Shown here: positions 3,017-50,043 of the stretch, in pieces
Numbering within the stretch: position 1 is the first letter of the stretch
How the letters are laid out: each line of letters starts with the position of its first letter
From: Thermodesulfobacteriota bacterium
GTDB lineage: Bacteria > Desulfobacterota > Desulfobaccia > Desulfobaccales > 0-14-0-80-60-11
Length of the DNA: 64,000 nt
Assembly: GCA_040757175.1 (NCBI GenBank)
Contig: JBFLXM010000004.1
Location: 15,023-79,022 of the forward strand
Reading direction: 5' to 3'
The notes under the pieces: generated by a model
What the model saw: only the letters and a program-made list of their open reading frames with translations
The model's database searches: none
What the model was told of the DNA's origin: nothing
Made by a program: the position numbers and the translations under genes

Positions 3017-3030
3017 TTAAATCTGCATAA

Positions 3031-3064: not shown

Positions 3065-3071
3065 ATTAAAT

Positions 3072-4340: not shown

Positions 4341-4403
4341 AAAGTATTTCCTCCTTGGGGTTTGCTGGTCGGATTGTCATTGGGATTAGTATCCACCGCG
4401 CAT

Positions 4404-6443: not shown

Positions 6444-6456
6444 AAAATCGCTCCTC

Positions 6457-6918
6457 CTAAACCGCCTCCGCCCTTGGTTGGGTTGCCAGCCAGGCGGCCC
6501 GGGCTTCCCGTTTCACCGGGTTGGGCCCCAGCTTGAGGGCCCGCTCGTGCATTTCCTTACAGACCTGGGCAAATTTGGGACCCTCCCCGGAACTGACATG
6601 GAACATCTCCAGGCGTTCCGGTTCGATACCTAAGGCCGCCAGGTCATTTTTCAATTTGTTGACCTTCTTCTTGGCCCGGATATTCCCGGCCAGGTAATGG
6701 CAGTCTCCTTCGTGGCAGCCGGAAAGGAAGATCGTGTCGAACCCCAACTCCAAGGCCTTGAGGACATGGAGAATGTCCACCCGCCCGGTGCAGGGCACCA
6801 TCATGATCCTGATTTCCGGGGGGTATTGGAGGCGCATGGCGCCTGCCAGGTCGGCCCCGGCATACGAACACCAACGGCAACATATACCCAGTATCCTGGG
6901 GAACTCCGGTTCTTTCAT
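6457..6918 (-). CDS. mvhD: MvhD/FlpD-like (methyl-viologen-reducing hydrogenase delta subunit family) [2Fe-2S] electron-transfer protein, copy 1
   Basis: It has the family motifs CCRWCSYAGADLAG...QYPP..R...VPCTGRVD...GCHEGDCHY. The RBS is GGAGGGAG. Confidence 0.85.
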   Translation of the reverse strand: MKEPEFPRILGICCRWCSYAGADLAGAMRLQYPPEIRIMMVPCTGRVDILHVLKALELGFDTIFLSGCHEGDCHYLAGNIRAKKKVNKLKNDLAALGIEPERLEMFHVSSGEGPKFAQVCKEMHERALKLGPNPVKREARAAWLATQPRAEAV

Positions 6919-6940
6919 TTTTTCTCCCTCCGTTTATTTT

Positions 6941-7405
6941 TCAGGCTGCGTTACCGGCAGCGGATTGCCGGGCCAGCCAGGCGGTTCTAACCGCCCGGCG
7001 CACCGGATTAGGCCCTAACCGGTAGACCCGCTCCGTCATTTCCTTAGCAATCGCCGCGAATTTGGGGCCTTCCGAAGCGGACACGTGGAACATTTCCACC
7101 CGCTCCGGCTCCAGGCCCACTTCCTTGAGAATTTCCTTCATCCTTTCAACCCGCTTGCGGGCGTAAAGGTTGCCGCTCACATAATGGCAATCCCCTTCAT
7201 GGCAGCCCGAAACAAAGACCGCATCCGCCCCGGCCTCGAAGGCTTGCAGCAGGTGGAGGATGTCCACCTTCCCGGTGCAAGGCTCCATGATAATCCTGAC
7301 TTCCGGCGGATATTGCAGGCGCATGGCCCCCGCCAGGTCCGCGCCGGTATAGGAACACCAGCGGCACAGGAAACCCACAACCTTGGCAGAATATTCAGTG
7401 TTCAT
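6941..7405 (-). CDS. mvhD: MvhD/FlpD-like protein, copy 2
   Basis: It has the same motifs as copy 1 (LCRWCSYTGADLAG, GCHEGDCHY). The track start at 7426 is a GTG; the ATG at 7405 (MNTEYS...) has GGAGGA 5 nt upstream and is preferred. Confidence 0.85.
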   Translation of the reverse strand: MNTEYSAKVVGFLCRWCSYTGADLAGAMRLQYPPEVRIIMEPCTGKVDILHLLQAFEAGADAVFVSGCHEGDCHYVSGNLYARKRVERMKEILKEVGLEPERVEMFHVSASEGPKFAAIAKEMTERVYRLGPNPVRRAVRTAWLARQSAAGNAA

Positions 7406-7446
7406 AGGTCCTCCAACGGTAACCACCGAGGGTTGAAATCAGCGGC

Positions 7447-9480
7447 TTATGCCGCTTTGCCCAAATTAACCGCACACACCTTGTATTCCGGGGTTTTCGT
7501 GACCGGGTCCAGGGCCGCGTTGGTCAGGCGGTTGGCGGCGTTCTCCAGGTAGTGCATGGGAATGAAGACCACGCCGGGCTTCACCGCTTCGCTGACCCGG
7601 GCTTTCACCTCAATGCTGCCCCGGCGGCTGCTGGCCCGGATTTTCTCTCCCGATTCGATCTGCAGACGCTCGGCGTCCAGGGGATTGATTTCTATGAAGA
7701 CCTCGGGGTTTTCATGGTGCAGGGTGGGGCAGCGCCGGGTCATGGTGCCCGTGAGATAATGCGAAAAAAGCTGCCCGGTGGTCAGCCAGAAGGGGTAATC
7801 CGGGTCCGGGGACTCCGCGGGCGGACGGTAATCGATGGCTTGAAAGAGTCCTAACCCCCGCGTGAACCTATCTTTGTGCAGATACTGAGTGCCGGGATGG
7901 TCCGGAGTGGGGCAGGGCCAGCAGAGTCCCGCCGCGTCCAGCCGGGGGTAGCTCATGCCCCCATAGGCCGGAGTCAGGCTGGCCATCTCATCAAAGATTT
8001 CCTCCGCGGAACGGTACTTCATTGGATAACCCAGGCGGGTGGAGAGTTCCGGGATGATCTCCCAGTTGTGCTTGCCGGGAATGGGAGGAATAGCCTCCCG
8101 CACCCGCTGCACCCGGCGTTCCGAACTGGCGAAGGTGCCGTCCGTCTCCGCAAAGGAGGCGCCGGGAAGCACCACGTGGGCCAGGGCCGTGGTGGAAGTG
8201 GGGAAAATATCCAAAACCAGCAGGAATTCCAGGGATTCCAGGGCCTCCTGCACCCGGTTGGCGTTGGGATAGCTCACCACCGGGTTGGCCCCAAAAACCA
8301 CCAGACCTTTCACCTTGCCTTGATGGATGGCCTCGATCTGCTCCACCATGGTGAGTCCCGGAGCGCCGGAGAGTTTGACATTCCAGGCTTTCTCGAACTT
8401 TTCCACACATTCCGGCGCGCTCACGTATTGATAGCCGGGGAAGGCATTGGGGAGAGCGCCCATGTCGCAGGCCCCCTGCACGTTGTTCTGGCCCCGGATG
8501 GGGTTGACCCCGGTGGAGGGCCGGCCGATCTGGCCGCAGAGCATGGCCAGGTTGGCCAGACTCTTGACGTTGTCCGTACCGGTGCTGTGCTGGGTGATGC
8601 CCAAGACGTAGACAATGGCGCTGGCCGGGGATTTGGCGTACCATTCGGCCATTTTGACGATATCCCCAGCGGCTACGCCGGTGATCTCCGAGACCCGTTC
8701 GGGGGGAAACTGTTCAATCATCTCCACCAGCGCAGGGAAATTTTCCGTGCGCTCCTCGATAAACGCCTGGTTGTGCCAGCCGTTCTGGTAGATGACGTGC
8801 ATCAGGCCATTGATCAGGGCCACGTCCGTCCCCAGGTTCTGCTGCACGTGGAGATCGGCCAACTGCGCGATCTGGGTCTTCCGGGGATCGGCCACTATCA
8901 GCTTGCCGCCGTTGGCCTGGGCCCGCATCAGGCGTTTGGCCGCGATGGGGTGGGAGACGGTGGTGTTGGAGCCGATCACCAGGAGGCACTTGGCCTGTTC
9001 CAGTTCCGCAAAGGAGTTGGTCATGGCCCCGCTCCCGAAGGAGACGGCCAGGCCGGCCACCGTGGGGGCGTGGCAGAGACGGGCGCAATGGTCCACGTGG
9101 TTGTGGCCGAACACGGCCCGGGCGAATTTCTGAAAGATATAGGTCTCTTCGTTGGGGCAGCGGGCCGAACCCACAAACACCACGCTCTCCGGCCCATAGG
9201 TATTTTTTAGCCTGGTCAATTCGGACGCGGCGTAATCATAGGCCTGGTCCCAGGTGGCTTCCCGCAAAGAGCCGCCTTGACGGATGAGAGGCTTGGTGAG
9301 GCGGTCGGGATGCTGAATGAATTCATGCACACTCCAGCCCTTGATGCAGAGACTCCCCTCGTTCGACGGCCCGCTCTTGGCAGCCAGGGTGTTGATGATC
9401 TTTCCGTCGAGCACCTCGAAGATAAAATTGCACCCCACCCCGCAATAGGGGCAGGTGGTGAGAACCGAGCGAAAATCCAT
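7447..9480 (-). CDS. fdhA: Formate dehydrogenase catalytic subunit, Cys-type, cytoplasmic, copy 2 (diverged paralog of 4404..6443)
   Basis: It has CPYCGVGCN and VDHCARLCHAPTV, and is colinear with copy 1 with many substitutions throughout. The RBS is GAGGAG. Confidence 0.85.
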   Translation of the reverse strand: MDFRSVLTTCPYCGVGCNFIFEVLDGKIINTLAAKSGPSNEGSLCIKGWSVHEFIQHPDRLTKPLIRQGGSLREATWDQAYDYAASELTRLKNTYGPESVVFVGSARCPNEETYIFQKFARAVFGHNHVDHCARLCHAPTVAGLAVSFGSGAMTNSFAELEQAKCLLVIGSNTTVSHPIAAKRLMRAQANGGKLIVADPRKTQIAQLADLHVQQNLGTDVALINGLMHVIYQNGWHNQAFIEERTENFPALVEMIEQFPPERVSEITGVAAGDIVKMAEWYAKSPASAIVYVLGITQHSTGTDNVKSLANLAMLCGQIGRPSTGVNPIRGQNNVQGACDMGALPNAFPGYQYVSAPECVEKFEKAWNVKLSGAPGLTMVEQIEAIHQGKVKGLVVFGANPVVSYPNANRVQEALESLEFLLVLDIFPTSTTALAHVVLPGASFAETDGTFASSERRVQRVREAIPPIPGKHNWEIIPELSTRLGYPMKYRSAEEIFDEMASLTPAYGGMSYPRLDAAGLCWPCPTPDHPGTQYLHKDRFTRGLGLFQAIDYRPPAESPDPDYPFWLTTGQLFSHYLTGTMTRRCPTLHHENPEVFIEINPLDAERLQIESGEKIRASSRRGSIEVKARVSEAVKPGVVFIPMHYLENAANRLTNAALDPVTKTPEYKVCAVNLGKAA

Positions 9481-9512
9481 ATATCAATCTCCTCATTTGC
9501 GGCCGTAAAGGC

Positions 9513-10322
9513 TTATAACGGCTTGGTCTCCAAGGTCGCTTCCTCTCCCAGCATTTTCCAGGGAGAGGGACCGGCTTCCGGGGAGCCGACATTATAATCG
9601 AACAAGTCCTTCACCAGGGCGTTGGCCTTCTTGTACAGGACCCGCAAGGGGATGTCCGCGGGGCAGTTTTCTTCACACAGGCCGCAGTCGATGCAGCGTC
9701 CGGCCATGTGGATGGCCCGCACCAGTTGAAAGATGCTATCCGGCGGCAATTGGCCGGTGCTCATCAGGTCCTCATGCTCCAGGGAGCATTCCTTGCAAAA
9801 GCACATGGGGCAGACATCCCGGCAGCCGTAGCATTTGATGCACTTTTTAAACGCGGCCAGCCATTCCTGAAACGCGTCCTGCTCCGCCAGGGCGTCGACG
9901 CGTTCCACCCGCCGGCTCTTGATTACCGGCTGACATTTTTCCCCGTAATCCACCACCGAGGTCCAGGGGCCGGAACACTCGCAGTAATCGGCCTGGCTCT
10001 GGGTGCAGGCGACGCCCACCGGCACCACCTTTTCCGGGTCCAGTTGGCCCCACTTGTATAGTTCGTTGAGCCCTCGTTCGTCGCAGCCCCTTACCTGGAT
10101 GGCAAACGCGGCCTCGGGATAGTGGCCCGCCAGGGCTATCAAGAGCTTATCCAGGGGATAGCGGCAATTATCGGGGGCGACAATGGCCCGGTCCACCTCC
10201 GCCAGGTTCTCCTTGGTGAAGAGATGCGGCAGGGGGTGGCCCTCCTTTATGAGGTAGCCGAGGTATCCGGCGACTTTGTCTTCGGTAAGAAGTTTTTTGA
10301 CTTTTGCGCGTAGTTTATCCAT
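9513..10322 (-). CDS. 4Fe-4S dicluster electron-transfer protein (AsrA / sulfhydrogenase-beta-like Cys pattern)
   Basis: It carries CIKCYGCRDVCPMCFCKEC and CIDCGLCEENCP. It sits between mvhD and fdhA in the operon. Confidence 0.65.
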   Translation of the reverse strand: MDKLRAKVKKLLTEDKVAGYLGYLIKEGHPLPHLFTKENLAEVDRAIVAPDNCRYPLDKLLIALAGHYPEAAFAIQVRGCDERGLNELYKWGQLDPEKVVPVGVACTQSQADYCECSGPWTSVVDYGEKCQPVIKSRRVERVDALAEQDAFQEWLAAFKKCIKCYGCRDVCPMCFCKECSLEHEDLMSTGQLPPDSIFQLVRAIHMAGRCIDCGLCEENCPADIPLRVLYKKANALVKDLFDYNVGSPEAGPSPWKMLGEEATLETKPL

Positions 10323-10354
10323 GAGAACTATCCTTATCAGCCCTAATCAGGCCG

Positions 10355-10786
10355 CTAAGCCGCCCTGGCCGCGGCCTTCAGGCGGGCCGGGCCCATTTTC
10401 TTGATCTTTTCCGTGAAATTCCGCACCGTCTCGGCGAACTTGGGGCCTTCCGCGGCGGAGATCCATTCCAGGTGCAACCGTCCAGGTTCAAATCCGGTGA
10501 ATTTCAGGAGGTCCTGGAGGAAACGCATGCGCTTGACGGTCATGTAATTGCCCCGGAGATAATGGCAGTCGCCAATGTGGCAGCCGCCGATGAGCACGCC
10601 GTCCGCGCCTTTCTGGAAGGCCTTGAGCACGTGGTGGGGCGACACCGTGCCGGAACACATGACCCGGATGACCCGGATATTAGGGGGATACTGAAGACGG
10701 CTCACCCCGGCCAGGTCGGCCCCGGCGTAGGTGCACCAATTACAGAAGAAACCGATGATCTTCGGTTCGAAATTGCTCTCGGACAT
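10355..10786 (-). CDS. mvhD: MvhD/FlpD-like protein, copy 3
   Basis: It has FCNWCTYAGADLAG...QYPP...GCHIGDCHY. Confidence 0.85.
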   Translation of the reverse strand: MSESNFEPKIIGFFCNWCTYAGADLAGVSRLQYPPNIRVIRVMCSGTVSPHHVLKAFQKGADGVLIGGCHIGDCHYLRGNYMTVKRMRFLQDLLKFTGFEPGRLHLEWISAAEGPKFAETVRNFTEKIKKMGPARLKAAARAA

Positions 10787-10838
10787 AATGTGACCTTCTC
10801 TCTTTATTTTGCGCCTTTGCGTCTTGGCGTGAGGTTTA

Positions 10839-13800
10839 TCAGCCCGCGGCCTCGTCCATTTTCAGTTCGGCCAGGGCCTCGTCTATCTGGGTATAGATCT
10901 GCTTGTGGCTGAAGCCCATGAGGGTGATGCACTCCGACGGGCAGTTGGCCGCGCAGGTGCCGCAGCCCTTGCACAGGGCCTGGTTCACTTCACAGACCTT
11001 TGCCGTTTCTTGGTAGTCGATGGCCACGAAGGGGCAGACCCCCACACAGGCCTGGCAGCCGGAACAGAGCGCGGGATCGATGCTGGCCACCACGCCCCCG
11101 GCCTTGATGGACTCCTGGCTCAAAACCACCGCGGCCCGGGCCGCGGCGGCCTTGGCCTGGGCGATGGCTTCATCCAGGGGCTTGGGATAGTGAGCCAGAC
11201 CCGCGACAAAGACGCCCTCGGTGGCAAAGTCCACCGGCCGCAGCTTCATGTGGGCCTCCAGGAAGAAGCCCTCGTGGTTCAGGGGCACCTTGAACATCTG
11301 GGCCAGCTTCTCCTGTTCCTTGACAATGATGGCGGAAGCCAGGGTGAGGACGTCGGGCCGGATGGTGACGGGCAAACCCAGGATGAGGTCTTGGACCGTG
11401 ACCTGGAGACCGCCGTCCGCGGTTTGCGCCACTTGGGGCTTGTCGTCCGCGTGGAAGCGGATGAAGATGACTCCCTTCTCCCGGGCCTCATGGTAGAGAT
11501 TTTCCCTCAGGCCGTAGGTGCGCAGGTCCCGGTAGAAGATGTACACGTCCATCTCCGGATTGAGCTCTTTGAGCCGGATGGCGCTCTCCACCGAATGGGT
11601 GCAGCAGACCCGGCTGCAGTAAGGCCGCTCCGGTTCCCGGGAGCCCACGCACTGGATGAAGGCCGCGCATCTGGCCTCGGTGACCAGGGGATTTTTCTCC
11701 CGGAGGGCCTGGTCCATCTCCAGGGACAGCAGCACCCGGGGGTTTTCTTTATATAGATACTCTTTAGGCTTATACGAATGGCCGCCGCTGGCGATGATGG
11801 CGGCCCCGTGTTCCACTTCCACTTCCCGTCCCCCGGCGCTGAGGAGGCTGTGAAAATTACCCACAAACCCTTGCACGTCGGTGACTTCCGCCTTGAGGTG
11901 GACTTCGATCTGCGGGTGTTTGGATACCCGCTGCACCAGTCCGTCCACATACGGCTTGACGGGCTCGCCTCTCCAGGTCTGGTTGAGCTTCAGGGCGTGG
12001 CCGCCCAGGAAGTCTTTTTTCTCCACCAGATGCACCTTAAAGCCCTGGTCCGCCAGGCCCAGGGCCGCTTCCATACCCGCGGCGCCGCCGCCGATGACCA
12101 GCCCGGCCTTGGTGATGGGCAGGGTGAACTCTTTTAAAGGCTGCTGCAAGGCCACCTTGGCCACGGCCATGCGCACCTGGTCCTTGGCCCGCCGGGTGGC
12201 CCGCTCGGGCTCGTGCATGTGCACCCAGGAACCTTGATCCCGGATATTGGCCAGCTCAAAGAGGTATTTATTGAGCCCGGCTTCCTTGATGGTTTCCTGG
12301 AACAGAGGCTCATGGGTCTTGGGGGTGCAGGAGGCAACCACGATGCGGTTGAGATTGTGCTCCTTGATGCGCTCTTTGATGATCTCCTGGGTGTCCTGGG
12401 AGCAGGTGAAGAGGTTGTTCTCCACGTACTCCACATAGGGAAGCGTCTTGGCGTAATCCCGCACCGCCTCCACGTCGATGACACTGGCGATATTGATGCC
12501 GCAATGGCAGACGAAGACGCCCACCTGGGGCGTTTCCTGGGAAATGTCCCGTTCCGGGAATTCCGGCTTTTTCCTGGCCAGGGAGAAGCGGGCCGGGGCC
12601 AGCAGTTCCCCGGCTGCGGACGCGGAAGCCGAGGCTTCCATGACCGACTGGGGGATGTCCTTGGGCCCCTGGAACGCGCCGCAGACATAGATGCCGGGCC
12701 GGGTGGTGGCCACCGGCGCCAAGGAGGAGGTTTCCGCAAACTTATTGACGTTCAAGTCGATCCCCAAAGTGCGGCCCATCTCCAGCACCGCGGGCGGCAC
12801 TTCCAGACCCACGGACAACACCAGCAGGTCGAAGGTCTCGGACCTCAAGGTCCCGTCTTCATCGAGATAACGGATACTGAGGTCGTCGGTGCCCGGCACC
12901 GGGTCCACGCTATGGATCCGGGAGCGGATGAACCGGACCCCGTGCTCATCCCGGGCCCGCCAGTAATACTTTTCAAAATCCTTCCCCATGGTGCGCATAT
13001 CCATGAAGAAGATGGCGGCTTCCAGGCCGTTTTTGCTGTGCTCCTTGGCAATGACCGCCTCCTTGATGGCGTACATGCAGCAGACCGCGGAGCAGTGGCT
13101 GTTGTCGCAATGGTTCAGGTCCCGGGAGCCGACGCACTGCAGCCAGGCTATTCTTTGGGGCTCCTTGTGGTCCGACGGCCGCACCAGGTGGCCTTCGTAA
13201 GGACCGGAAGCGCTCAAGATGCGCTCAAACTCCATGCTGGTGACCACATTGGGCAGCGAGGCGTAGTGATAGGCCTCGTACTTGGTGGGATCGTAGGCTT
13301 TGAAGCCCGGGGCCAGGATCACCGCGCCCACCTGGAGGTCCCGGGGTTGGTCGGTTTGGGAGAAATCCACCGCGCCGGTGGGGCAGAATTTCTCGCAAGC
13401 CTTGCACTTTCCCCCCTTCTTGAAGAAGAGGCAGTTGTCGGCATCAATGGCGAATTTCAGGGGCACCGCCTGAGGATAGAGGACGTACGCGGCTTTGCGC
13501 GACATCAGCCCCTGGTTGAATTCGTCCGGCACCTTCTTGGGGCACTTTTCAGCGCACAGGCCGCAGGCGATGCACTTGGTCATATCAATATAACGGGCCG
13601 GCTGGTTCACGGTGACGGTAAAATTGCCTGGCTCCCCCTTGATCCCCTGCACCCGGGCCGGGGCCAGGATTTCAATATTCAAATGCCTGCCACATTCCAC
13701 CAGCTTGGGGGAGAGAATGCACATGGAGCAGTCGTTGGTGGGGAAGGTCTTGTCCAACTGGGCCATGACCCCGCCGATGGCGGGTCTGGCTTCCACCACA

Positions 13801-14399: not shown

Positions 14400-14780
14400 T
14401 TTATTTCTTAAATTGTCCACACCATAGACTGATACTGCTCTTTATCCGCAGTTCATATCAATGTAATTGGGTTTCGATATACTTATCGTAATCCGCTCCT
14501 TTGAGCGCCTCCCCTGCCCCTCTCCCCTTCTCTGCCCGTCAATCTGGAGCAAATTTTTCCCCTCATTCGGTGGTTTCTTCTGGCACCATTCAGCTAAGCC
14601 TATGTTTTACCTAGGAATGGGCGTATACCGAAAAAAATGGGCACGAATGTACGCCTATCTGACGGGGGAAATCCCCAGGGGAAGGGACAGAAAAAGATTA
14701 CAAATAAGAAAACCTACTCACCAACCTATTTTCCTGCCAAAAAGGGGGCACCATAATTGACCTTAAGTCCTTGAAATCAT

Positions 14781-14836
14781 TGGTGCCTGGGGCCGGACTC
14801 GAACCGGCACGGGGCGAACCCCGAGGGTTTTTAAGA
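14781..14836 (-). pseudogene. 3-prime half of a tRNA-Leu(UAA) gene (anticodon loop to CCA); att-like island boundary
   Basis: The first 30 nt (14781-14810) are identical to 19095-19124 of the intact tRNA. The remainder is a related variable arm and anticodon stem-loop. The reverse strand reads CTTAAAAACCCTCGGGGTTCGCCCCGTGCCGGTTCGAGTCCGGCCCCAGGCACCA. Confidence 0.8.
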
Positions 14837-15147
14837 ACCAAAATCGCCAAAAAGCTTCCTTAGTCCTTCTCATAACTTACTGATTGTATTGGATTATACA
14901 GACATACTAATCAATGTTGGGGAGCTTTTGTAAAACAGCTTTATTTCCTTAATTTTCGCTGAGAAAGCAGTGCCTCGCCGGTAAGAATCCCCGGTATTTC
15001 CAGGGTTGCCGAGAACTCTCGTAGTATTGCACCCTTGTTTGTCGTTCTCAGGTAACCTCTTGTCTTTTGTAGGAAAATCAAATAAGATCAAAGCTCAATA
15101 TTCCCATGGCAGTAACTTCCGGACTTTAGCGTCTCTTAATAGGCACC

Positions 15148-18048
15148 TTGCCGAATCGTGCCATGATGGATTTCAAAACTCTGCTTCAAAAGCATCAGGC
15201 CTTGCTTGCCGAAAACCAGGCTTTGAAGGAAGAGAACCTATCCTTAAAGGTCCGGCTGGGCCTTGTCGAGCCACCTGAGAGACGATTTTCTCAGGAAGTG
15301 TTTAAGCGAGATCTCTCCCCATCGGCACCGTCAGTCACACTCAAGGCGACTACTCCGGCAGAGAAGGTCCAGCTCTTCATGTCCTTGTTCAAGGGGCGGG
15401 ACGATGTGTATGCCAAAAGATGGGAAAGCAAAGAAGGCAAGTCCGGATACGCACCTGTTTGCTTAAATGAATGGGCAGCCGGCTTCTGCCGAAAGCCCGA
15501 AGTCAAGTGCATTTCCTGTGAGCATAGATCATATGCCGCTCTGGATGGAAAGGTCATAGAAGCACACTTGCGTGGAAACCTTGTTGTCGGCATCTATCCC
15601 TTGCGCCAAGACGAAAAGTGCCACTTTCTGGCCATAGACTTCGATAAAGATGGCTGGCAACAGGATGTCTCCATTCTAAGAGGTGTTTGTCTGGCTTTTG
15701 CGGTGCCGGTGGGGATTGAACGTTCGCGCTCTGGTCATGGTGCCCATGCCTGGTTTTTCTTCACTGACCCGGTTGGGGCGAGTCTGGCTCGAAAATTTGG
15801 CTCTGCATTGCTGACCTGCGCCATGACCCGGTGTCATCAAATCAAGTTTAAATCTTACGACCAGTTATTCCCCAATCAGGACACCATACCCAAGGGTGGA
15901 TTCGGCAACCTGATTGCCCTGCCGTTACAAAAGACAGCGCGTCAAGAAGGCAACAGCGTCTTCATTGATGAGCGTTTCCAGCCCTATGAGGACCAGTGGG
16001 GATTTCTGGCCCAGATCGGGAGGCTTTCTGAAGACGAAATTAGTGCTTTGATCGCTAAACTTTGCGATGGGAGCGAACTCGGTGAGCTGAGACAAGATGA
16101 GGAAGAGGAGACCAAATCCTGGGAGCCGAGGCGGAGTAAGCTTTCACGGCATGAATTTCCGAAGGAAATTCAGGTAGTCAAAGCCAATATGCTTTACCTA
16201 AACAAATCAGGTGTTTCCCCGAGGGGGTTGAACACCTTAAAAAGGTTGGCCGCATTCAAGAATCCCGAGTTTTACCGGGCGCAGGCCATGCGCATGTCCA
16301 CTTACGGAAAACCTCGCATCATCTCCTGTTCAGAGGAAACCTCCGAGTACCTTTGTCTCCCGAGAGGATGTGAGGCAGATCTGTCTTCTCGTTTTGGAGA
16401 AGCTGGCGTCGAGGTCGAATGGCTAGACAGGACCGACCCGGGGAGACCCATCGAGGTTGCTTTTACAGGCATGTTGCGGGGGGACCAGGAACTCGCGGCA
16501 GAGGCAATGTTAAATCATGATTGCGGGGTTCTGGCGGCCGCCACAGCCTTCGGGAAAACTGTCATTGCTGCCAAGCTGATTGCCGAGCGCAAGACCAACA
16601 CACTCATCTTGACTCACCGCCAACAACTTCTTGCGCAGTGGCTGGCGAAGCTGGCTCAGTTTCTGGAAATCGCAGCGGAACTTCCTATGGTGACGACAAA
16701 GCTCGGGCGAAAACCGCAACAGAGCCTCATCGGGCAGATCGGTGCGGGAAGAGCGAATCCGAACGGTATTATCGATGTGGCGATCATGCAGTCCTTGACA
16801 AGAGGCGGGGAAGTGAAGGAGTTTATCAGAGATTATGGCATGGTGATTGTTGATGAGTGTCACCACGTACCTGCCTTCACATTCGAGCAGATACTTAAGC
16901 AGGTTCATGCCAAATACATTTATGGTTTGACGGCCACACCGGTCAGGCGTGACGGGCATCATCCTATTATTTTCATGCACTGCGGCCCCGTAAGGTACCG
17001 GGGGGATGCCAAAAAGGAGGCTTCGAGACGGCCGTTTGAGCACTATGTCATTCCCCGGTTCACCAGCTTCAGGGTGCCTTTTGACCAAGAAGAAAAGGAT
17101 ATTTCAATTCAGGAGTTCTATTCTGAAATCTCCACGGACGAATGGCGCAATCAGCTGATTATCGATGATGTCCTCAGGTCCCATGAAGAAGGCAGAAATG
17201 CGCTTATTCTCACCGAAAGGACCACCCATGTGGAACTGCTGGCTGGGAAGCTGAGCGAGCAAATCCCCGAAGTGATTACCCTAACTGGCGGGAAGGGAAG
17301 AAAGGAGAGCAGAAATGTCTTGGCCAGAATCTCCGAAACGCCCGCTGACGGGCAGTTGACCTTGGTTGCCACCGGCAGGTATATCGGGGAGGGCTTTGAT
17401 GAACCCCGGCTGGATACACTATTTCTGGCAATGCCCATATCATGGAGAGGTACATTGCAGCAATACGCTGGTAGGCTGCACCGCTTGTTCCAGAACAAGA
17501 AAGAGGTGCAGATCTATGACTATGTCGATATTTATGTAAAAATATTGGAGAAAATGTATCAGAAAAGGCTGGCTGGATATGCCGCCATCGGCTATCGGGC
17601 CAAAGCGGAAAGTCTCCCAACGGAACCCGCTAATAGTATTTTTGATAGCACCAATTTCCTCCCCGTTTACAATAATGACCTGATAAACGCCAGGCGCGAG
17701 GCGGTGATTGTCAGCCCGTTCGTGACAAGAAGGCGAGCCATGCAAATGCTGCCGCACCTGAAAGCGGCCATGGCAAAGAAGGTTTCCGTGGTTGTGGTCA
17801 CCAGGCCGATAAATTCTTACAAAGACCAGGTCCGGTCGACCTTGGAGGAAACTCTATACTCGGTGCAAAATACCGGCATACGCCTACTGTTTCAAGCTAA
17901 TATCCATCAAAAATTCGCGGTTATCGATCAGAAAATAGTATGGTACGGCAGCATCAACCTCCTCAGTTATGGGAGCGCCCAAGAAAGCTTTATGCGGCTG
18001 GAAAGCCCTAATATCGCCCAGGAACTGTTGAAAAACCTTTTAAATTGA
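15148..18048 (+). CDS. Fused archaeo-eukaryotic primase-polymerase (AEP) / SF2 DEAH helicase / HKD (PLD-family) nuclease protein
   Basis: AEP motifs are FLAIDFDKD, SRSGHGAHAWFFF and GFGNLIALPLQ. Helicase motifs are AFGKTV, VIVDECHH, GLTATP and QYAGRLHR. The HKD motif is HQKFAVIDQKIVWYGSIN. The N-terminus is a coiled coil. The track start at 15148 is a TTG; the first ATG is at 15163. Confidence 0.8.
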   Translation: MPNRAMMDFKTLLQKHQALLAENQALKEENLSLKVRLGLVEPPERRFSQEVFKRDLSPSAPSVTLKATTPAEKVQLFMSLFKGRDDVYAKRWESKEGKSGYAPVCLNEWAAGFCRKPEVKCISCEHRSYAALDGKVIEAHLRGNLVVGIYPLRQDEKCHFLAIDFDKDGWQQDVSILRGVCLAFAVPVGIERSRSGHGAHAWFFFTDPVGASLARKFGSALLTCAMTRCHQIKFKSYDQLFPNQDTIPKGGFGNLIALPLQKTARQEGNSVFIDERFQPYEDQWGFLAQIGRLSEDEISALIAKLCDGSELGELRQDEEEETKSWEPRRSKLSRHEFPKEIQVVKANMLYLNKSGVSPRGLNTLKRLAAFKNPEFYRAQAMRMSTYGKPRIISCSEETSEYLCLPRGCEADLSSRFGEAGVEVEWLDRTDPGRPIEVAFTGMLRGDQELAAEAMLNHDCGVLAAATAFGKTVIAAKLIAERKTNTLILTHRQQLLAQWLAKLAQFLEIAAELPMVTTKLGRKPQQSLIGQIGAGRANPNGIIDVAIMQSLTRGGEVKEFIRDYGMVIVDECHHVPAFTFEQILKQVHAKYIYGLTATPVRRDGHHPIIFMHCGPVRYRGDAKKEASRRPFEHYVIPRFTSFRVPFDQEEKDISIQEFYSEISTDEWRNQLIIDDVLRSHEEGRNALILTERTTHVELLAGKLSEQIPEVITLTGGKGRKESRNVLARISETPADGQLTLVATGRYIGEGFDEPRLDTLFLAMPISWRGTLQQYAGRLHRLFQNKKEVQIYDYVDIYVKILEKMYQKRLAGYAAIGYRAKAESLPTEPANSIFDSTNFLPVYNNDLINARREAVIVSPFVTRRRAMQMLPHLKAAMAKKVSVVVVTRPINSYKDQVRSTLEETLYSVQNTGIRLLFQANIHQKFAVIDQKIVWYGSINLLSYGSAQESFMRLESPNIAQELLKNLLN

Positions 18049-18074
18049 TCTCTAACAGACCAGGAGAGTCAACT

Positions 18075-18536
18075 ATGGAAGACCAGGACGAAATCTTGTC
18101 TCAAATAGTAACCGCCCTTCAGGAAGGTTTGGGAGAGCGCCTGGTAGCTGTTGTCTTGTATGGCTCTCGAGCCCGGGGTCAGGCGCGTGAGGTCAGTGAT
18201 TGGGATCTATTTATCATTGCCTCGGATTTACCGGCGCGACTTTGGGAGCGGCATGTCCTTTTAAAGCGTTTTCTTCCGGCTGCATATCGCAGTGCAATAT
18301 CTCTTTTGGCCAAGACCCCCCACGAATTTGAAGAAAGAATTTCCTCCATATATCTGGATATCGCCCAGGATGGTCAAATTCTATATGACCCCCAAGGATA
18401 TGCCAGTCGGCGTTTGGCTGATTTGCAGCGGCTGATGGCGGAGACGGGTCTTTATCGTAAGCAATCTTCGGGTGGTGAGGTCTGGAGATGGCGACAAAAG
18501 CCCCGGCGACCCTGGGCACTTGAGTGGAAGGAATGA
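18075..18536 (+). CDS. Minimal nucleotidyltransferase (MNT / MntA-like antitoxin)
   Basis: It has the GS...DxD signature YGSRARGQAREVSDWDLF. The ATG at 18075 is preceded by AGGAGAG. The track start at 18045 is a TTG overlapping the upstream stop. Confidence 0.8.
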   Translation: MEDQDEILSQIVTALQEGLGERLVAVVLYGSRARGQAREVSDWDLFIIASDLPARLWERHVLLKRFLPAAYRSAISLLAKTPHEFEERISSIYLDIAQDGQILYDPQGYASRRLADLQRLMAETGLYRKQSSGGEVWRWRQKPRRPWALEWKE

Positions 18537-18539
18537 TCG

Positions 18540-18962
18540 ATGCTGGCTCCCGAGGAAGTCTCTTACCGCCTTCGCCTAGTCTTGGGATTTCTTGAAGAAG
18601 CCCGCCAGGATTTCACCTTGGAGCGGTGGCGCTCATGTGTCGATAATAGCCAGTTGGCCACGGAAAACGCAGCGAAGGCTGTGTTGGCGCTTTTGGGGCC
18701 AGTGGGGCGCACGCACAATCCCTCTTTATTATTACGAGAAGCATTGGCAGGAGGAGAATTCCCGGCGGAAATTTCTTCACAAGTGGAACGCCTGGCAGAA
18801 TGTGCTGAGCTTTTGGGGCCAGATATCCATGTGCAAAGCGATTATGGTGATGAGGCTGGCGGACGTACTCCGTGGGAATTGTTCGACCAGGACACAGCCC
18901 GCCAAGCTCTTGACCTCGCAGAGGAGGTTGCTGAATTATCTCAGAAGGTTTTGACCACATGA
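18540..18962 (+). CDS. HEPN-domain protein (HepT-like toxin partner of the MNT)
   Basis: It is about 140 aa and all-helical, starts 3 nt after the MNT stop, and has the segment AENAAKAVLALLGPVGRTHNPSLLL typical of PF05168-type HEPN proteins. The pairing with the MNT supports the call. Confidence 0.7.
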   Translation: MLAPEEVSYRLRLVLGFLEEARQDFTLERWRSCVDNSQLATENAAKAVLALLGPVGRTHNPSLLLREALAGGEFPAEISSQVERLAECAELLGPDIHVQSDYGDEAGGRTPWELFDQDTARQALDLAEEVAELSQKVLTT

Positions 18963-19094
18963 TATAGGCCTGGTAGCCGTTGATTCAAGGCCAGGAAACC
19001 GACATGTCTGGCAGATTTTTAAAAACCTACTAACGATACCTCCTAACCGTTGATTGTCTGTAAATTTTATTAAAGCGTAAGCGTTTGGTTTTAC

Positions 19095-19182
19095 TGGTGC
19101 CTGGGGCCGGACTCGAACCGGCACAGGCGCGAGGCCCGAGGGATTTTAAGTCCCTTGCGTCTACCCGTTCCGCCACCCAGGC
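19095..19182 (-). tRNA. tRNA-Leu (anticodon UAA), intact, with encoded CCA
   Basis: The reverse strand reads GCCTGGGTGGCGGAACGGGTAGACGCAAGGGACTTAAAATCCCTCGGGCCTCGCGCCTGTGCCGGTTCGAGTCCGGCCCCAGGCACCA. It has a 7-bp acceptor stem, anticodon loop CTTAAAA, a long variable arm and T-loop TTCGAGT. Confidence 0.9.
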
Positions 19183-19253
19183 TCTTTAGTAATTTCAATA
19201 AGTGGTCAATTTGTGGTAAGGGCAAAAAAAAGCTTTGGTGTCCATATCGGTGT

Positions 19254-19543
19254 CTATCTTGCCCCTGCCAAGGCTTTAAGCTCTTCTTCGCTTACCTTGT
19301 TATCGCGTTGGAACACCTGCATGGTTTTAGGCCCACTCGCCGCCATTATACGGAAGTAGTCATGCCCCTGCAACCGCCAGTTGTTAATAGCCATATCCAG
19401 AAGTTGTGAAAAGTGAAATTTTCTATCCCGGGCTGTTTGCAAGCCCTATCGAATATTACGCGGCAGGAAGTTATCGGTTGGCCGCCCCGGGTGAATACTT
19501 TCACCCCTGGCAGGGCCCGGGGCCTGGCGCTGGACTCTGCCAC
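19254..19543 (-). pseudogene. Decayed tyrosine-recombinase (integrase) C-terminal remnant
   Basis: Two frames carry box-II-like fragments: ENFTFHNFWIWLLTTGG (compare FTFHDLRHTFAS.L...G) and GHDYFRIMAASGPKTMQVFQRDNKVSEEELKAL (compare GVDL..IQ.LLGH.SI.MT.RY.HL..E.L). It is frameshifted, catalytic residues are lost and the N-terminal domain is missing. Confidence 0.45.
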
Positions 19544-19708
19544 CAGTTTAGGAGACCAGGTCGAAGACAGACTTCCAGGTCTAAATTTTCAGGTTATGCC
19601 GCTTTTTGCACTCGGGACACCCTGTTAAGACCACTACATCCTGCTTTCCCCAAGGGTTCTCTGGGCCCTGAAACTTTTGTTTACCGTTATGCCCAGGAAG
19701 GCCTCTGG

Positions 19709-20023
19709 TTAGCGTTCAATTTCAATTCGAAGAGTAGGGCCGCCTTTACGCGAAGTTAAATAACACGTGCCCAAGCCTCTCACCCTTCCGTCATAGGTAT
19801 CATCGTTTTTCTCGTCGGAAATCTCTATCACACCCATCTTATTGACATAACCAGACATTATTGCTTTACCATAATTGTTATAGATTACCACATGGCCTTT
19901 ATCATCAACCCAACCTTGATAGACTTTTCCTCCTTGATAAACAGTCACACTTCCTGAAATCCCTTGCTGAACAGTAAATAATCCAATAATAACCACCATT
20001 AATAGAATAGCTAATGTTCTCAT
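19709..20023 (-). CDS. Small secreted or membrane-anchored hypothetical protein (low GC)
   Basis: The N-terminal hydrophobic signal is MRTLAILLMVVIIGLFTV. I recognise no family for it. It lies inside the island. Confidence 0.45.
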   Translation of the reverse strand: MRTLAILLMVVIIGLFTVQQGISGSVTVYQGGKVYQGWVDDKGHVVIYNNYGKAIMSGYVNKMGVIEISDEKNDDTYDGRVRGLGTCYLTSRKGGPTLRIEIER

Positions 20024-20200
20024 GTTGCCGCATCCTTATTGGGTTATGGGGCCACAAGAGGCCACTGTGTGTCTATCTTTCCTTTTATTCCTGTTAAATC
20101 CTGCTTTCTTATGCACACTAGCACAAGTGCCAATTAATTGCAACCGCTAAATATTGTTTAATACTGCCAAGTCCTGCCAACCCCCTTTTTTTGCTTTTTC

Positions 20201-20234
20201 AGTCCCTTGCGTCTATCCGTTCCAACACCCAGGC
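20201..20234 (-). pseudogene. 5-prime half of a tRNA-Leu gene (5-prime end to anticodon loop), decayed; att-like island boundary
   Basis: The reverse strand reads GCCTGGGTGTTGGAACGGATAGACGCAAGGGACT, matching nt 1-34 of the intact tRNA with 3 mismatches that break the D-stem. Confidence 0.7.
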
Positions 20235-20314
20235 AGAATATACAATTTTTGACATTTTTTTGGTCTGGTACCCGCCATCATTCGCAAGCAGCCGCGGCCC
20301 CGCAACCGCCAGTT

Positions 20315-20413
20315 ATACTGTTTTCGGTTTTCGGTTTTCAGTTTTCGGTTAAAAGATTGTCAATTATCAATAAGTTAGTGGTTTGGTTTGTTGCGGCAGA
20401 ATCCGAACTTGGT
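20315..20413. mobile_element. MITE family B, copy 1 (99 bp; TACTG(TTTTCGG)n...CGAACTTGGTA; TSD TTA)
   Basis: It is homologous to 48244-48342 and 59022-59113 and is flanked by TTA/TTA. Confidence 0.7.
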
Positions 20414-49471: not shown

Positions 49472-49547
49472 GGGGTGTCCTCTCTTAACCTCCGAAGGCG
49501 GGATGCGCTTCGCTTTCCCGCCCTGCACCACCGTGCTTCTCAGCATA

Positions 49548-50022: not shown

Positions 50023-50043
50023 GGCCTTGCCTTAATTTGAAAA

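Follow-up and report, generated by a model that had tools for sequence, protein, structure and literature searches.

A PLD-bearing primase-polymerase–helicase protein of the AEP-TOTE family as a candidate stand-alone conflict gene in a tRNA-Leu island

Several described systems resemble parts of a locus in which an AEP primase-polymerase, an SF2 helicase and a PLD-family nuclease are encoded as one protein upstream of an MNT-HEPN pair. TOTE systems are defined by their TPR, OB and TBP partners. AEP-helicase fusions are classic replication proteins (replicases) of mobile elements, and AEP domains also act in bacterial end joining. PDB entry 7CLG, listed as 'Putative helicase', is presumably SauUSI, a type IV restriction enzyme; SauUSI has its PLD domain at the N terminus and, at the C terminus, a domain that reads modified bases. 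A single HKD motif implies a dimeric nuclease site in the PLD family, and MNT-HEPN pairs elsewhere are self-contained modules. Entries 7NQD and 7NQF we take to be the Prim-Pol domain of Marinitoga CAPP of Zabrady 2021. A CAPP-helicase type exists, and the non-CRISPR homologues of CAPP are mostly Prim-Pol plus helicase proteins in mobile and transposable elements (Zabrady 2021, PMC8211822). A mobile-element-derived Prim-Pol carries out translesion synthesis and microhomology-mediated end joining (PMC11724360).

Here, such a locus was analysed in a 64-kb stretch of DNA, hereafter the window. With a probability of about 55%, its 966-aa protein is the product of a stand-alone, horizontally transferred single-protein conflict (anti-invader) gene from a PLD-bearing branch of the AEP-TOTE/CAPP_A-like primase-polymerase-helicase family, for which we infer a mechanism below.

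Domains and motifs of the large protein

Three ORFs, all on the + strand, lie where the original prediction placed them, at 15148-18048 (966 aa), 18045-18536 and 18540-18962. The first, the large gene, has the following features.

15047..15147, + strand: conserved leader preceding the large gene; promoter-like hexamers (DNA homology to relatives)
15148..18048, + strand: leucine zipper/AEP primase-polymerase/XPB-like SF2 helicase/PLD nuclease gene, 966 aa from TTG
15172..15255, + strand: N-terminal leucine zipper (aa 9-36), predicted dimerisation element (AlphaFold helix; conservation; weak HALZ match)
15361..16047, + strand: AEP-TOTE primase-polymerase domain (aa 72-300; PF22548; PADLOC PrimPol; PDB 7nqd/7nqf; conservation)
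15460..15519, + strand: four-cysteine knuckle C105, C114, C121, C124, inside the AEP domain (conservation; 7nqd alignment)
16474..17547, + strand: SF2 helicase/translocase core (aa 443-800), XPB/Rad25-like (ResIII, DEAD, Helicase_C; PDB; Foldseek)
17680..18036, + strand: C-terminal PLD-family nuclease domain with one HKD motif (PLDc_2; MkoC, MkoB and DrmC PLD regions)

The true start is probably one of two conserved ATGs at 15163 and 15166 (960-961 aa), because a 100% identical NCBI copy of the protein has 960 aa. DNA homology to the closest relatives extends from about 100 nt upstream of the large gene (from 15047 against L004, L005 and L035, and from 15075 against L001) to its stop codon and ends there; judged from these alignments, the unit of inheritance is the large gene with its ~100-nt leader. 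By our own reading, TTGTCT and TAAGAT, spaced by 17 nt, are promoter-like hexamers of this leader; a generic promoter scan, whose output was not above that from shuffled sequences, did not call them.

The AEP, SF2 helicase and PLD domains proposed from motifs alone are all borne out by strong Pfam matches, including those to the AEP and HKD profiles on which the proposal was staked. AEP-TOTE (PF22548) is covered end to end at aa 72-300 (E=1.6e-100, 335.9 bits against a cut-off of 27), ResIII matches at aa 443-600 (4.5e-20) together with DEAD (1.7e-10) and Helicase_C (1.2e-4), and PLDc_2 matches at aa 845-963 (5.4e-11). Every motif originally quoted is present, and most are conserved when scored in 78 distant and 113 close homologues. 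The predicted coiled coil is more precisely a leucine zipper of four heptads (L12, L19, L26, L33, with N30), invariant or near-invariant in 58 homologues, on an AlphaFold helix spanning 9-36 (pLDDT ~80). The Cys-rich stretch corresponds to the four knuckle cysteines, each kept in 74-75 of the 78 distant and all 113 close homologues. From the alignment, the knuckle appears to be inserted with respect to the 7nqd chain, as its segment falls between matched stretches; the AlphaFold model is unreliable there (pLDDT <50).

The AEP catalytic residues D164, D166, H200 and D238 are conserved in both homologue sets. Beside D238 the window protein has Q239, a position occupied by R in 74/78 distant and 112/113 close homologues; since Q239 replaces a near-invariant R, the primase of the window protein may be impaired. 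The nearest solved AEP relative by sequence is 7nqd/7nqf (E=9e-11), with motifs I-III and flanking blocks aligned. The domain also matches the PADLOC profile 'PrimPol, CAS-associated' (PDLC01465, 6e-94) and the NCBIfam CRISPR-associated Prim-Pol model (4.6e-27), which, like the existence of the CAPP-helicase type, would suit a CRISPR-associated primase-polymerase serving spacer acquisition. However, the NCBIfam score is 94.7 against a cut-off of 200, nothing array-like was found by a tandem-repeat scan of the 64-kb window, and no Cas family occurs in the top-25 Pfam or PADLOC lists of the scanned neighbours. Such a role is effectively refuted for the window locus.

The helicase motifs GKT (469-471), DECH (569-572), TAT (595-597) and QxxGRxxR (772-779) are conserved; the PDB matches include XPBII (4e-15) and 7clg (4e-9), and the top Foldseek matches are XPB and XPB-Bax1. 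In the PLD domain, modelled with pLDDT mostly 77-88 over ~840-930, the HKD residues are H920, K922, D927, G934-S935 and N937, and HQKFAVIDQKIVWYGSIN fits HxK(x4)D(x6)GSxN exactly, as predicted. The HKD motif is intact in 112-113 of the 113 close homologues, whereas of 43 distant sequences scored at the PLD columns only 7 have it intact. The large protein also matches PADLOC mREase_IV (1e-9). All three enzymes retain their catalytic residues in the window protein, and its enzymatic activity is plausible. The AlphaFold model of the full-length protein is weak (mean pLDDT 61, pTM 0.35).

Distribution of the family and its genomic neighbourhoods

The large protein is not new as a kind: its family is widespread and already named AEP-TOTE. 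The database label mentioned in the original prediction is confirmed by the PF22548 match and by the NCBI name 'TOTE conflict system AEP domain-containing protein' carried by some homologues. 'Conflict system' is a computational label, and, in line with the prediction, no experiments on any AEP-TOTE/PLD family member were found in the literature searched. At least 120 homologues of ≥63% identity were present among the matches listed, nearly all with the same architecture, and a search with the N-terminal 420 aa returned 1,338 clusters (50% identity) at E<=1e-30. Members of ~800 aa have the AEP domain fused to the same SF2 helicase, and the operon of one of them (P0138) also encodes a TPR protein and a STAND-like NTPase. 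In a quick tree, the PLD-bearing proteins group as a single clade. Primase and helicase motifs are near-invariant, and the HKD His/Lys are kept only in close relatives of the window protein. Because most distant PLD-bearing relatives have lost these two residues, a simple 'nuclease effector' model, judged by the alignment, cannot hold for the whole family.

The gene neighbourhoods were compared at 80 retained loci, which lie on 80 different contigs from many phyla and encode proteins of 54-82% identity. The neighbours are hypervariable, with 155 Pfam families among the 149 nearest ORFs; most frequent among them are HTH antitoxins, MNT, Fic, DUF4143/AAA_14, ParE, AbiEi/AbiEii, HEPN, Phd and RES. 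PADLOC matches of the nearest ORFs, as raw counts without a matched control, include PDC-S09, PDC-S01, SoFic, AbiEi and DpdE/ZorD-like helicases. Individual homologues adjoin the BREX genes PglZ and BrxL (L001), lie between AbiE pairs (L003) or follow Abi_2 (L119), and tRNA or tmRNA genes occur within a few kb at 7 of 17 close loci. No TPR, OB/CSD or TBP gene is present in the window island or in the top-25 neighbour Pfam lists of the 80 PLD-bearing loci. The PLD-bearing proteins thus stand alone, without TOTE partners, in variable, toxin-antitoxin- and defence-rich spots, an observation new here; these are the variable settings that the prediction expected, as opposed to core or replication modules.

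This distribution also bears on a possible role in DNA repair or damage tolerance, as an enzyme spread by horizontal transfer and comparable to Pol theta or LigD plus XPB-Bax1, with the helicase processing ends or bubbles, the nuclease trimming and the AEP domain filling in or joining. XPB, which partners the nuclease Bax1 in archaea, is the nearest match of the helicase, and the end-joining role of bacterial AEP domains and the activities of the mobile-element-derived Prim-Pol cited above would fit. We nevertheless consider this very improbable: the distribution is patchy and island-borne (251 related stretches among 185,579 species genomes scanned), the neighbours are mostly toxin-antitoxin and defence rather than repair genes, and no ligase or Ku was found among them.

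The tRNA-Leu island and the MNT-HEPN pair

The large gene is cargo at a tRNA-Leu gene, in a small island with the following further features.

14782..14843, - strand: displaced tRNA-Leu 3' part (anticodon loop to CCA-proximal end), island left boundary (repeat and alignment)
18075..18536, + strand: minimal nucleotidyltransferase (MNT), 153 aa from ATG, motif GSRARGQAREVSDWD (Polbeta; NTP_transf_2; PADLOC PDC-S09)
18540..18962, + strand: HEPN-domain protein (PF05168), 140 aa (HEPN 6e-12)
19095..19182, - strand: intact tRNA-Leu(taa), island right boundary (ARAGORN; Rfam tRNA, 58.3 bits)
20196..20234, - strand: extra tRNA-Leu 5' part (repeat D5, 90%; alignment)

GC content drops from ~0.60 to 0.44-0.53 between ~14000 and 20500, and the large gene, MNT and HEPN all lie within this stretch. 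The proposed low-GC segment bounded by tRNA-Leu fragments holds for the low GC and for the left 3' fragment, which aligns to the complete tRNA and to tRNA-Leu from L177 and L008 and lies in a direct repeat (14764-14813 versus 19078-19127 on the intact tRNA side, 82%); the right border, however, is the intact tRNA-Leu, and the 5' fragment lies further out. That extra 5' copy, followed at 20257-20314 by a copy of the tRNA-Leu upstream region (repeat D1, 72%), points to this tRNA having been the site of a second rearrangement or insertion. The low-GC stretch also extends beyond the three genes, taking in ~0.8 kb without coding sequence at its left end and, at its right end, ~1.3 kb that includes a small ORF.

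The tRNA-Leu repeats flanking an island with only the large gene and a toxin-antitoxin-type pair would also fit a protein that replicates or maintains a small integrative mobile element, in which the helicase would open the origin, the AEP domain prime and the PLD domain nick, possibly via a covalent intermediate; MNT-HEPN would be an addiction module, and the window island a decayed, integrase-less remnant mobilisable in trans. AEP-helicase fusions are typical replicases, the published statement on non-CRISPR CAPP homologues points the same way, PLD-less relatives adjoin integrases, a recombinase trio or TniQ (these on plasmids) or resolvases, one of ~25 IMG/VR contigs with full-length relatives (L100) adjoins two integrases, and there are weak PHROGs matches to primase and helicase families. 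Even so, we regard this reading as doubtful. The motor is of the XPB/restriction SF2 type rather than a hexameric SF3, SF4 or MCM replicative helicase; integrases, partition and transfer genes are absent from the top-25 lists for the two nearest ORFs on each side at the 80 loci; homology with close relatives stops at the gene borders, and no origin-like or terminal sequence is common to them; no second gene copy was seen in any of the 80 contigs; and the primase part has no copy in 50,697 GenBank phage records.

ATG 18075 is the most likely start of the MNT, whose ORF opens at 18045; this ATG lies ~26-27 nt past the large-gene stop and after an AGGAG at ~18062, and the HEPN ATG follows 3 nt past the MNT stop, in agreement with the predicted layout. 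The MNT matches Polbeta (1.3e-7), NTP_transf_2 (6.8e-6) and PDC-S09 (1e-14), and scores 31.5 bits against the MntA cut-off of 60. Pfam matches thus uphold both assignments, except that the window HEPN has R57-T-H59 (by regular expression) and not the canonical Rx4-6H, unlike the HEPN of relatives, which carries RIFRKTH.

The original prediction treated the three genes as one system, in which the pair might, for example, regulate or back up the large protein. They share a strand with short gaps, and no + strand terminator was called between them; the pair and the large gene probably share a transcript. An MNT lies directly downstream in five relatives among the closest (L001, L004, L007, L008 and L035; 78-82% identity), with a PF05168 HEPN confirmed after it in L004 and L008, and also in L053 and L056. 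The 0.94 Mb surrounding homologues contain 15 MNT genes, whereas 1.07 Mb surrounding a core gene of related organisms contain 0. The window MNT is 28-38% identical to the relatives' MNT, and no pairwise similarity was detected between the window and L004 HEPN, so by sequence comparison the window pair is not orthologous to theirs, although it is the same kind of cassette in the same place. Since five closest relatives have a downstream MNT and the window pair is of the same kind, a lineage-specific link may exist. A single three-gene system is nonetheless improbable, and the claim is not supported: homology ends at the large-gene stop, 66/80 loci have no MNT anywhere (14/80 have one), VapBC, HigBA, ParDE, Phd, AbiE, Fic and MqsA occupy the same positions, MNT is found at 0/25 IMG/VR loci with full-length relatives, the window HEPN departs from Rx4-6H, and such pairs are self-contained elsewhere. 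Nor is the coupling supported as a new family feature, with only 7/80 loci having MNT directly downstream, 5/7 from one related group. The adjacency of MNT-HEPN characterises the closest relatives rather than the family, which is new here, and the pair is best viewed as a neighbour rather than a fixed partner, a putative separate toxin-antitoxin or abortive-infection-type module.

Proposed mechanism and comparison with known systems

As a single-protein conflict gene, the large protein would form a parallel homodimer through its N-terminal leucine zipper, a step supported by the conserved N30, and the homodimer would pair two single-HKD PLD domains to build one shared nuclease site, an arrangement known from Nuc, BfiI and SauUSI. 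The XPB-like SF2 motor would translocate on duplex DNA, driven by ATP, and open it, and the primase-polymerase with its Cys4 knuckle would engage the exposed single strand or 3' end and synthesise on it. In members with an intact HKD motif, the window protein included, the outcome would be ATP-dependent cleavage or blocked replication of incoming DNA. The near-invariant primase and helicase motifs and the often-lost nuclease residues suggest that synthesis and translocation are the core activity and that cleavage is an optional output. MNT-HEPN would be a separate module sharing the island, not an obligatory partner.

Some features count against a conflict role, namely the primase-helicase fusions, the PLD-less relatives beside integrases, the lost HKD residues, Q239 and the weak structural model.

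Compared with TOTE systems, the protein matches PF22548 end to end and has the helicase fusion of the ~800-aa members, whereas the window branch has a PLD domain added at the C terminus and stands alone, with no TPR, OB/CSD or TBP gene in the window island or in the top-25 neighbour lists. The CAPP_A Prim-Pol is the nearest solved AEP relative, but the window family differs in the Cys4 insertion, the PLD domain and the partner helicase context, and the window locus in having no cas genes or array nearby and a score below the NCBIfam equivalog cut-off. The pair resembles MntA-HepT (type VII) in an MNT with GSx(n)DxD closely followed by a HEPN-fold protein; it differs in the sub-cut-off MntA score and in a HEPN of PF05168 type with a divergent motif, and its toxin-antitoxin role is putative. 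The predicted comparison with DISARM holds for the PLD domain, through the DrmC PLD region, and is confined to it; the window PLD domain also matches the PLD regions of MkoC and MkoB. XPB/Rad25, including archaeal XPB-Bax1 (PDB 6P4F, 6P4O, 5TNU), is the best sequence and fold match over aa ~440-800, and XPB-Bax1 likewise pairs a DNA-opening motor with a nuclease; XPB, however, is a core repair/transcription factor that has no primase and whose nuclease is a separate protein of another fold. SauUSI resembles the window protein in uniting a PLD nuclease and an SF2 motor in one polypeptide (7clg, 3.6e-9; mREase_IV, 1e-9), whereas the window protein has its PLD domain at the C terminus and, instead of a modified-base reader, a primase-polymerase.

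Domain architecture and conserved sites of the large protein

ORF calling recovered all three genes of the original prediction as described, and each of the domains it had proposed from motifs (AEP primase-polymerase, SF2 helicase, HKD nuclease, minimal nucleotidyltransferase (MNT) and HEPN) was confirmed by profile search.

Genes of the island and domains of the large protein
15148-18048, + strand: large-protein ORF, 966 aa counted from TTG
aa 72-300 of the large protein: primase-polymerase (Pfam AEP-TOTE PF22548, E=1.6e-100)
aa 443-600: helicase N-lobe (ResIII, 4.5e-20)
aa 446-599: helicase N-lobe (DEAD, 1.7e-10)
aa 672-780: helicase C-lobe (Helicase_C, 1.2e-4)
aa 845-963: nuclease (PLDc_2, 5.4e-11)
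ending at 18536, + strand: MNT ORF, likeliest start ATG 18075, 27 nt after the large-gene stop, with AGGAG at ~18062
18540-18962, + strand: HEPN ORF, its ATG 3 nt 3' of the MNT stop (PF05168, 6e-12)

Because the NCBI copy of the large protein (100% identical) is 960 aa long and the ATGs at 15163 and 15166 are both kept among relatives in the alignment, the true start of the large gene probably lies at ATG 15163/15166. The protein matches PF22548 with 335.9 bits against a cut-off of 27, covering profile positions 1-229 of 230, and contains AEP motif I DxD (D164, D166), the motif II His (H200) and the motif III Asp (D238). The SF2 motifs GKT, DECH, TAT and QxxGRxxR are all conserved, and the helicase is XPB/Rad25-like. 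Within the PLDc_2 domain, the HKD motif (H920-Q-K922...D927...G934-S935-I-N937) fits HxK(x4)D(x6)GSxN and occurs as a single copy per chain. The N-terminus forms a four-heptad leucine zipper (L12, L19, L26, L33) with a conserved N30 at a core position. A conserved Asn at the zipper core is a hallmark of parallel dimers, as in GCN4, and the conserved N-terminal zipper suggests that the large protein is a dimer. An AlphaFold model of the whole protein, built from a 58-sequence alignment, was weak (mean pLDDT 61, pTM 0.35). It served solely for the helicase and PLD domains and the zipper helix, and is uninformative on the Cys4 region and domain packing.

Conservation was scored in an alignment of the large protein with homologues of two kinds, 78 distant representatives and 113 close ones. 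Among the distant homologues, D164 and D166 are retained in 75/78, H200 in 75/78 and D238 in all 78, the four Cys of the AEP knuckle are kept in 74-75, and the helicase motifs GKT, DECH, TAT and QxxGRxxR are near-invariant in the alignment. The HKD His and Lys are intact in 112-113 of the 113 close homologues; H, K and D are retained together in just 7 of the 43 distant sequences scored at the PLD columns, in which an 'IDxxxVWYGS' block around the motif persists. When the AEP-plus-helicase region alone was used for a neighbour-joining tree, PLD-bearing proteins formed essentially one clade, with intact-HKD members interspersed among degenerate ones. Our reading of this quick distance tree is that the PLD domain would have been gained once and its catalytic residues lost repeatedly. 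In addition, codon 239 of the large gene (15862-15864) encodes Gln next to the catalytic D238, a position occupied by Arg in 74/78 distant and 112/113 close homologues. The sole other Gln at this position is that of the identical NCBI copy, and Q239 may reflect an assembly error or mark an allele whose primase is impaired.

The tRNA-Leu island and its MNT-HEPN pair

The GC content falls from ~0.60 to 0.44-0.53 between ~14000 and ~20500, in a region flanked by ordinary core genes.

Landmarks of the island
left flank: HdrA-like flavin/iron-sulfur oxidoreductase and molybdopterin oxidoreductase
~14782-14843, oriented as the intact tRNA-Leu: copy of the tRNA-Leu 3' part, anticodon loop to 3' end
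19095-19182, - strand: tRNA-Leu(taa), the sole intact tRNA in the window
20196-20314: third piece, the tRNA-Leu 5' part with its upstream region copied alongside (90% and 72% identical repeats)
right flank: hybrid sensor kinase and biotin carboxylase

Site-specific integration into a tRNA gene usually leaves such a displaced 3' part as its footprint. The two tRNA-Leu copies enclose 4.25 kb that contain a leader, the large gene, MNT and HEPN and nothing else, with no integrase in this interval. Beyond the intact tRNA-Leu, a ~1-kb stretch of GC 0.40-0.46 (19183-20314) extends to the second copy of the tRNA 5' half. It encodes a 104-aa protein (19709-20023, - strand) that looks secreted by eye and matches no Pfam family, and may be a second small insertion or duplication at tRNA-Leu. 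The extra 5' piece therefore indicates that the tRNA was hit or rearranged more than once. A search for an empty site using the flanking HdrA-like gene gave an ambiguous outcome. For L176 and L178 (~85% DNA identity), the metagenomic loci most closely related in the HdrA-like region, synteny stops at ~14408, ~370 nt before the tRNA-Leu fragment, so that the variable region exceeds the att-bounded island. In one relative, L177, a tRNA-Leu lies ~600 nt from the HdrA-like gene in the opposite orientation, and the contig ends just after. At L008, whose large protein is 78% identical, the gene order is again large gene, MNT, HEPN, and next comes a 3' fragment of tRNA-Leu whose relative orientation is reversed.

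The window also contains numerous short tandem arrays, each made up of 4-6 copies of a 7-nt unit and with various unit sequences, at 20320-20350, 40866-40896, 41587-41615, 46443-46477, 48248-48278, 49031-49083, 49547-49577 and 50041-50079. Those placed against the ORFs are apparently intergenic, and a GTTTTCG x4.4 array occurs at two distant sites.

The window MNT matches Polbeta (1.3e-7) and NTP_transf_2 (6.8e-6) and shows the hG[GS]...Dx[DE] nucleotidyltransferase motif (GSRARGQAREVSDWD); against the MntA equivalog model it scores 31.5, under the cut-off of 60. The Rx4-6H RNase motif is absent from the window HEPN, which has just R57-T-H59, and the HEPN proteins of relatives carry RIFRKTH (Rx5H).

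The original prediction had joined this pair to the large gene as one system. At the DNA level, the window is homologous to its closest relatives from 15047, ~100 nt 5' of the large gene, to the stop codon (18039-18051), over a conserved leader that holds a promoter-like hexamer pair by eye in the alignment. A promoter and terminator scan gave counts no higher than in shuffled sequences and has no bearing either way on co-transcription. In five relatives with large proteins 78-82% identical (L001, L004, L007, L008, L035), mutual DNA homology extends beyond the stop codon into the MNT gene. The window MNT is only weakly similar (28-38% identity) to the genes immediately 3' of the large gene in four of them (L001, L004, L008, L035), and a PF05168 HEPN follows the MNT in both loci tested (L004, L008). 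With the window HEPN as query, jackhmmer found no match in the 80 genome loci retained for the family, though Pfam finds HEPN genes of the same family there, and no pairwise similarity was detected between the window HEPN and those of relatives.

A profile of these MNTs gave 15 matches in 14 of the 80 loci (0.94 Mb) but no match in either 25 IMG/VR loci or the 1.07 Mb surrounding the HdrA-like core gene in related organisms. Like other toxin-antitoxin families, MNT genes are therefore enriched in the vicinity of the large gene. Seven matches lie directly downstream on the same strand, five of them in one related group. The same kind of cassette occupies the same place in the closest relatives, but most of the family is without it, and the proposed MNT-HEPN coupling does not extend to the family. 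That the three genes form one system is accordingly an unlikely reading. We read MNT-HEPN as a co-resident of toxin-antitoxin-rich islands rather than part of a defining three-gene system; a lineage-specific link to the large gene is possible.

Distribution of the family and its genomic neighbours

A word-indexed search with the large protein returned 8,000 scored candidates, all at E<=1e-10, the best 120 of which are at least 63% identical and nearly all share the same Pfam architecture. Several homologues bear the NCBI title 'TOTE conflict system archaeo-eukaryotic primase domain-containing protein'. An exhaustive search of 1.84 billion representatives with the N-terminal 420 aa found 1,338 clusters at E<=1e-30 and 4,974 at E<=1e-10, in two length classes of ~800 aa and ~960 aa, the shorter having the AEP and helicase domains without the PLD domain. 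In a scan of one genome per species (185,579 species), 251 related stretches were found, 80 of which were retained as full length (54-82% identical). They come from Thermodesulfobacteriota, Bacteroidota, Bacillota, Planctomycetota, Omnitrophota, Nitrospirota, Actinomycetota, Ignavibacteria and others, a pattern over many phyla that indicates horizontal spread of the family.

What lies next to the large gene is hypervariable across the 80 loci, in family as well as in size and strand, and the 149 nearest ORFs match 155 Pfam families.

Pfam families among the 149 nearest ORFs
HTH_3: 9
HTH_37: 6
MNT (Polbeta / NTP_transf_2): 6
DUF4143: 5
Fic: 5
AAA_14: 4
ParE: 4
AbiEi_4: 3
AbiEii: 2
HepT-like: 2

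The second-nearest ORFs contribute AbiEii (4), HEPN (4), Phd (3), RES (2), Gp49 (2) and PIF1 (2). Integrase, TPR, cold-shock and TBP families appear in neither of the two top-25 Pfam lists (nearest and second-nearest ORFs, 80 loci). PADLOC hits among the nearest ORFs, a descriptive set without a matched control, include PDC-S09, PDC-S01, SoFic, PDC-S24, PDC-S04, AbiEi and DpdE/ZorD-like helicases. Among individual loci, the large gene follows the BREX genes PglZ and BrxL, Fic and MqsA (L001), HigB-like and HTH genes (L002), or VapBC in a position between AbiE pairs (L003), and in 7 of 17 close loci a tRNA or tmRNA gene is only a few kb away. At L007 (284-2176) and L008 (586-2478), a 631-aa protein with a marginal SWIM zinc-finger match is encoded on the same strand 60-95 nt 5' of the large gene; SWIM matches occur in 3 of the 149 nearest neighbours.

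Among six PLD-less relatives examined, one (P0138) shares its operon with genes for a TPR protein and a STAND-like NTPase, an arrangement that looks like a canonical TOTE, and the others have resolvases, integrases or toxin-antitoxin genes in their vicinity. There are 36 plasmid records that cover 80% or more of the query, and among the matches listed all 15 are of the PLD-less form; the plasmid copies inspected adjoin TniQ, a three-recombinase set or integrases. The alphaproteobacterial plasmids L088 (S. meliloti pMl1, 4832-8469) and L090 (Yoonia, 2176-12370) carry PLD-less homologues, one of which comes directly after a TniQ-family gene. Another plasmid homologue and three tyrosine recombinases are flanked by the N-terminal part of a strawberry-notch gene on one side and its C-terminal part on the other, so that the homologue resembles cargo of a recombinase-trio element.

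The primase part of the large protein was absent from GenBank phages in a search of phage records, and ~25 IMG/VR contigs carry full-length relatives (42-49% identity), one beside two integrases, one after Abi_2 and one after RhuM. In the IMG/VR locus L100 (6580-10880), a 966-aa homologue (42-43% identity) has overlapping HTH-like and DUF3307 genes 5' and two integrases 3', and the same match coordinates recur in ~15 UViGs labelled viral (L100-L110, L116, L118, L120). The PLD-bearing form may have a different set of partners here (HTH-like, DUF3307, integrases).

A single-gene transposon (a PLD 'Rep' plus helicase, Helitron-like) was considered and rejected. Upstream homology fades gradually with divergence and has no shared terminus, downstream homology runs on into the MNT gene in some relatives, and the 80 retained loci are on 80 different contigs.

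The large gene stands alone, in variable, defence-like contexts. We favour, at a probability of roughly 0.55, its being a conflict gene whose mechanism is inferred, and in this respect the original interpretation remains plausible. That the large protein serves instead to replicate a mobile element appears rather improbable to us.

Proposed function and comparison with known systems

As a conflict protein, the large protein might act as follows. The leucine zipper would hold a parallel dimer, pairing two single HKD domains into one nuclease site; other single-HKD nucleases build one site from two HKD domains. The XPB-like motor would translocate along duplex DNA and open it, and the AEP domain with its Cys4 knuckle would bind the exposed strand or 3' end and synthesise there. 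In HKD-intact members, the outcome would be ATP-dependent cleavage or replication blockage of incoming DNA. Since the nuclease site is often lost, synthesis and translocation are probably the common core of the family. More tentatively, and with the odds against it, this core may be a synthesis-based immunity, in which a dimer opens invader DNA with its XPB-like motor and a CAPP-like primase-polymerase primes or extends on it, the nuclease being optional and repeatedly disabled, and the PLD-bearing, partner-less clade being a self-sufficient single-protein TOTE.

The invariant primase and helicase sites, set against the often disabled nuclease, argue against presuming that the nuclease is the effector, and the same pattern shows which activities deserve mutation first. 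The family is large (~1,300 clusters at 50% identity), spans many phyla and is testable as a single gene. To our knowledge, a primase-polymerase has yet to be demonstrated as the effector of any bacterial defence that stands alone. Closest to this come the CAPP proteins, which are implicated in CRISPR adaptation (PMC8211822), and a Thermus Prim-Pol, which has a genetic link to resistance against environmental DNA (PMC7693054).

The helicase is nearest by sequence to XPBII, XPB and Rad25 (E=4e-15), followed by PDB 7clg (3.6e-9), which we take to be the restriction enzyme SauUSI. Foldseek with the weak AlphaFold model likewise placed XPB and archaeal XPB-Bax1 complexes first. A repair enzyme could carry such a motor, a reading to which we give little credence beside the defence-like contexts of the gene. 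The large protein has the PLD nuclease and SF2 motor in common with SauUSI-like type IV restriction, whereas a modified-DNA recognition domain was not detected with Pfam; PADLOC mREase_IV aligns solely over aa 459-796. Compared with DISARM, it has weak DrmC-like PLD similarity (1.3e-6) and marginal DrmD matches, but the remaining DrmA/DrmB/DrmC genes (plus DrmD/E or a methyltransferase) are missing from the island. No PADLOC candidate system fits the large protein as a whole.

The AEP domain is nearest by sequence to PDB 7nqd/7nqf (E=9e-11), presumably the Marinitoga CAPP Prim-Pol domain, with alignable blocks flanking all three catalytic motifs. The Cys4 segment sits between stretches matched to 7nqd, which suggests that it is an insertion relative to 7nqd/7nqf. 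PADLOC labels the AEP region 'PrimPol, CAS-associated' (6e-94), and NCBIfam PrimPol_Msp gives 94.7 bits against a cut-off of 200. The CRISPR-cas operon setting of CAPP is absent here, as no array-like repeat occurs in the window and no Cas families appear in the top-25 neighbour lists. A CRISPR link of the large gene is rejected on these grounds, and a role as a CRISPR accessory is scarcely credible.

TOTE membership was judged solely by the definition (TPR, OB, TBP, Effector) of Aravind, Iyer and Burroughs (2022) in the form quoted in bioRxiv 10.1101/2025.09.15.676423. By this quoted definition, the effector with enzymatic domains is present as the AEP-helicase-PLD protein. The TPR partner, found beside the PLD-less P0138, is absent from the proteins and small ORFs of the window island (Pfam) and from the top-25 neighbour lists of the 80 homologues. 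The OB-fold/cold-shock and TATA-binding-protein-like components are likewise absent from the island (Pfam) and these lists, although remote TBP folds may escape Pfam.

Zabrady et al. 2021 (PMC8211822) split CAPP_A proteins into TPR, RT and helicase types and note that most CAPP homologues outside CRISPR are Prim-Pol+helicase proteins carried by mobile elements. The large protein falls in this non-CRISPR Prim-Pol+helicase majority, an unexplored group. For the window, the outcome is mostly a correct annotation. The small tRNA-Leu island carries what is plausibly a candidate defence gene, of a kind already catalogued and computationally defined, with a toxin-antitoxin-type pair next to it. New here are the stand-alone nature of the PLD clade, the apparently repeated decay of its nuclease site and the conservation of the primase and helicase sites.
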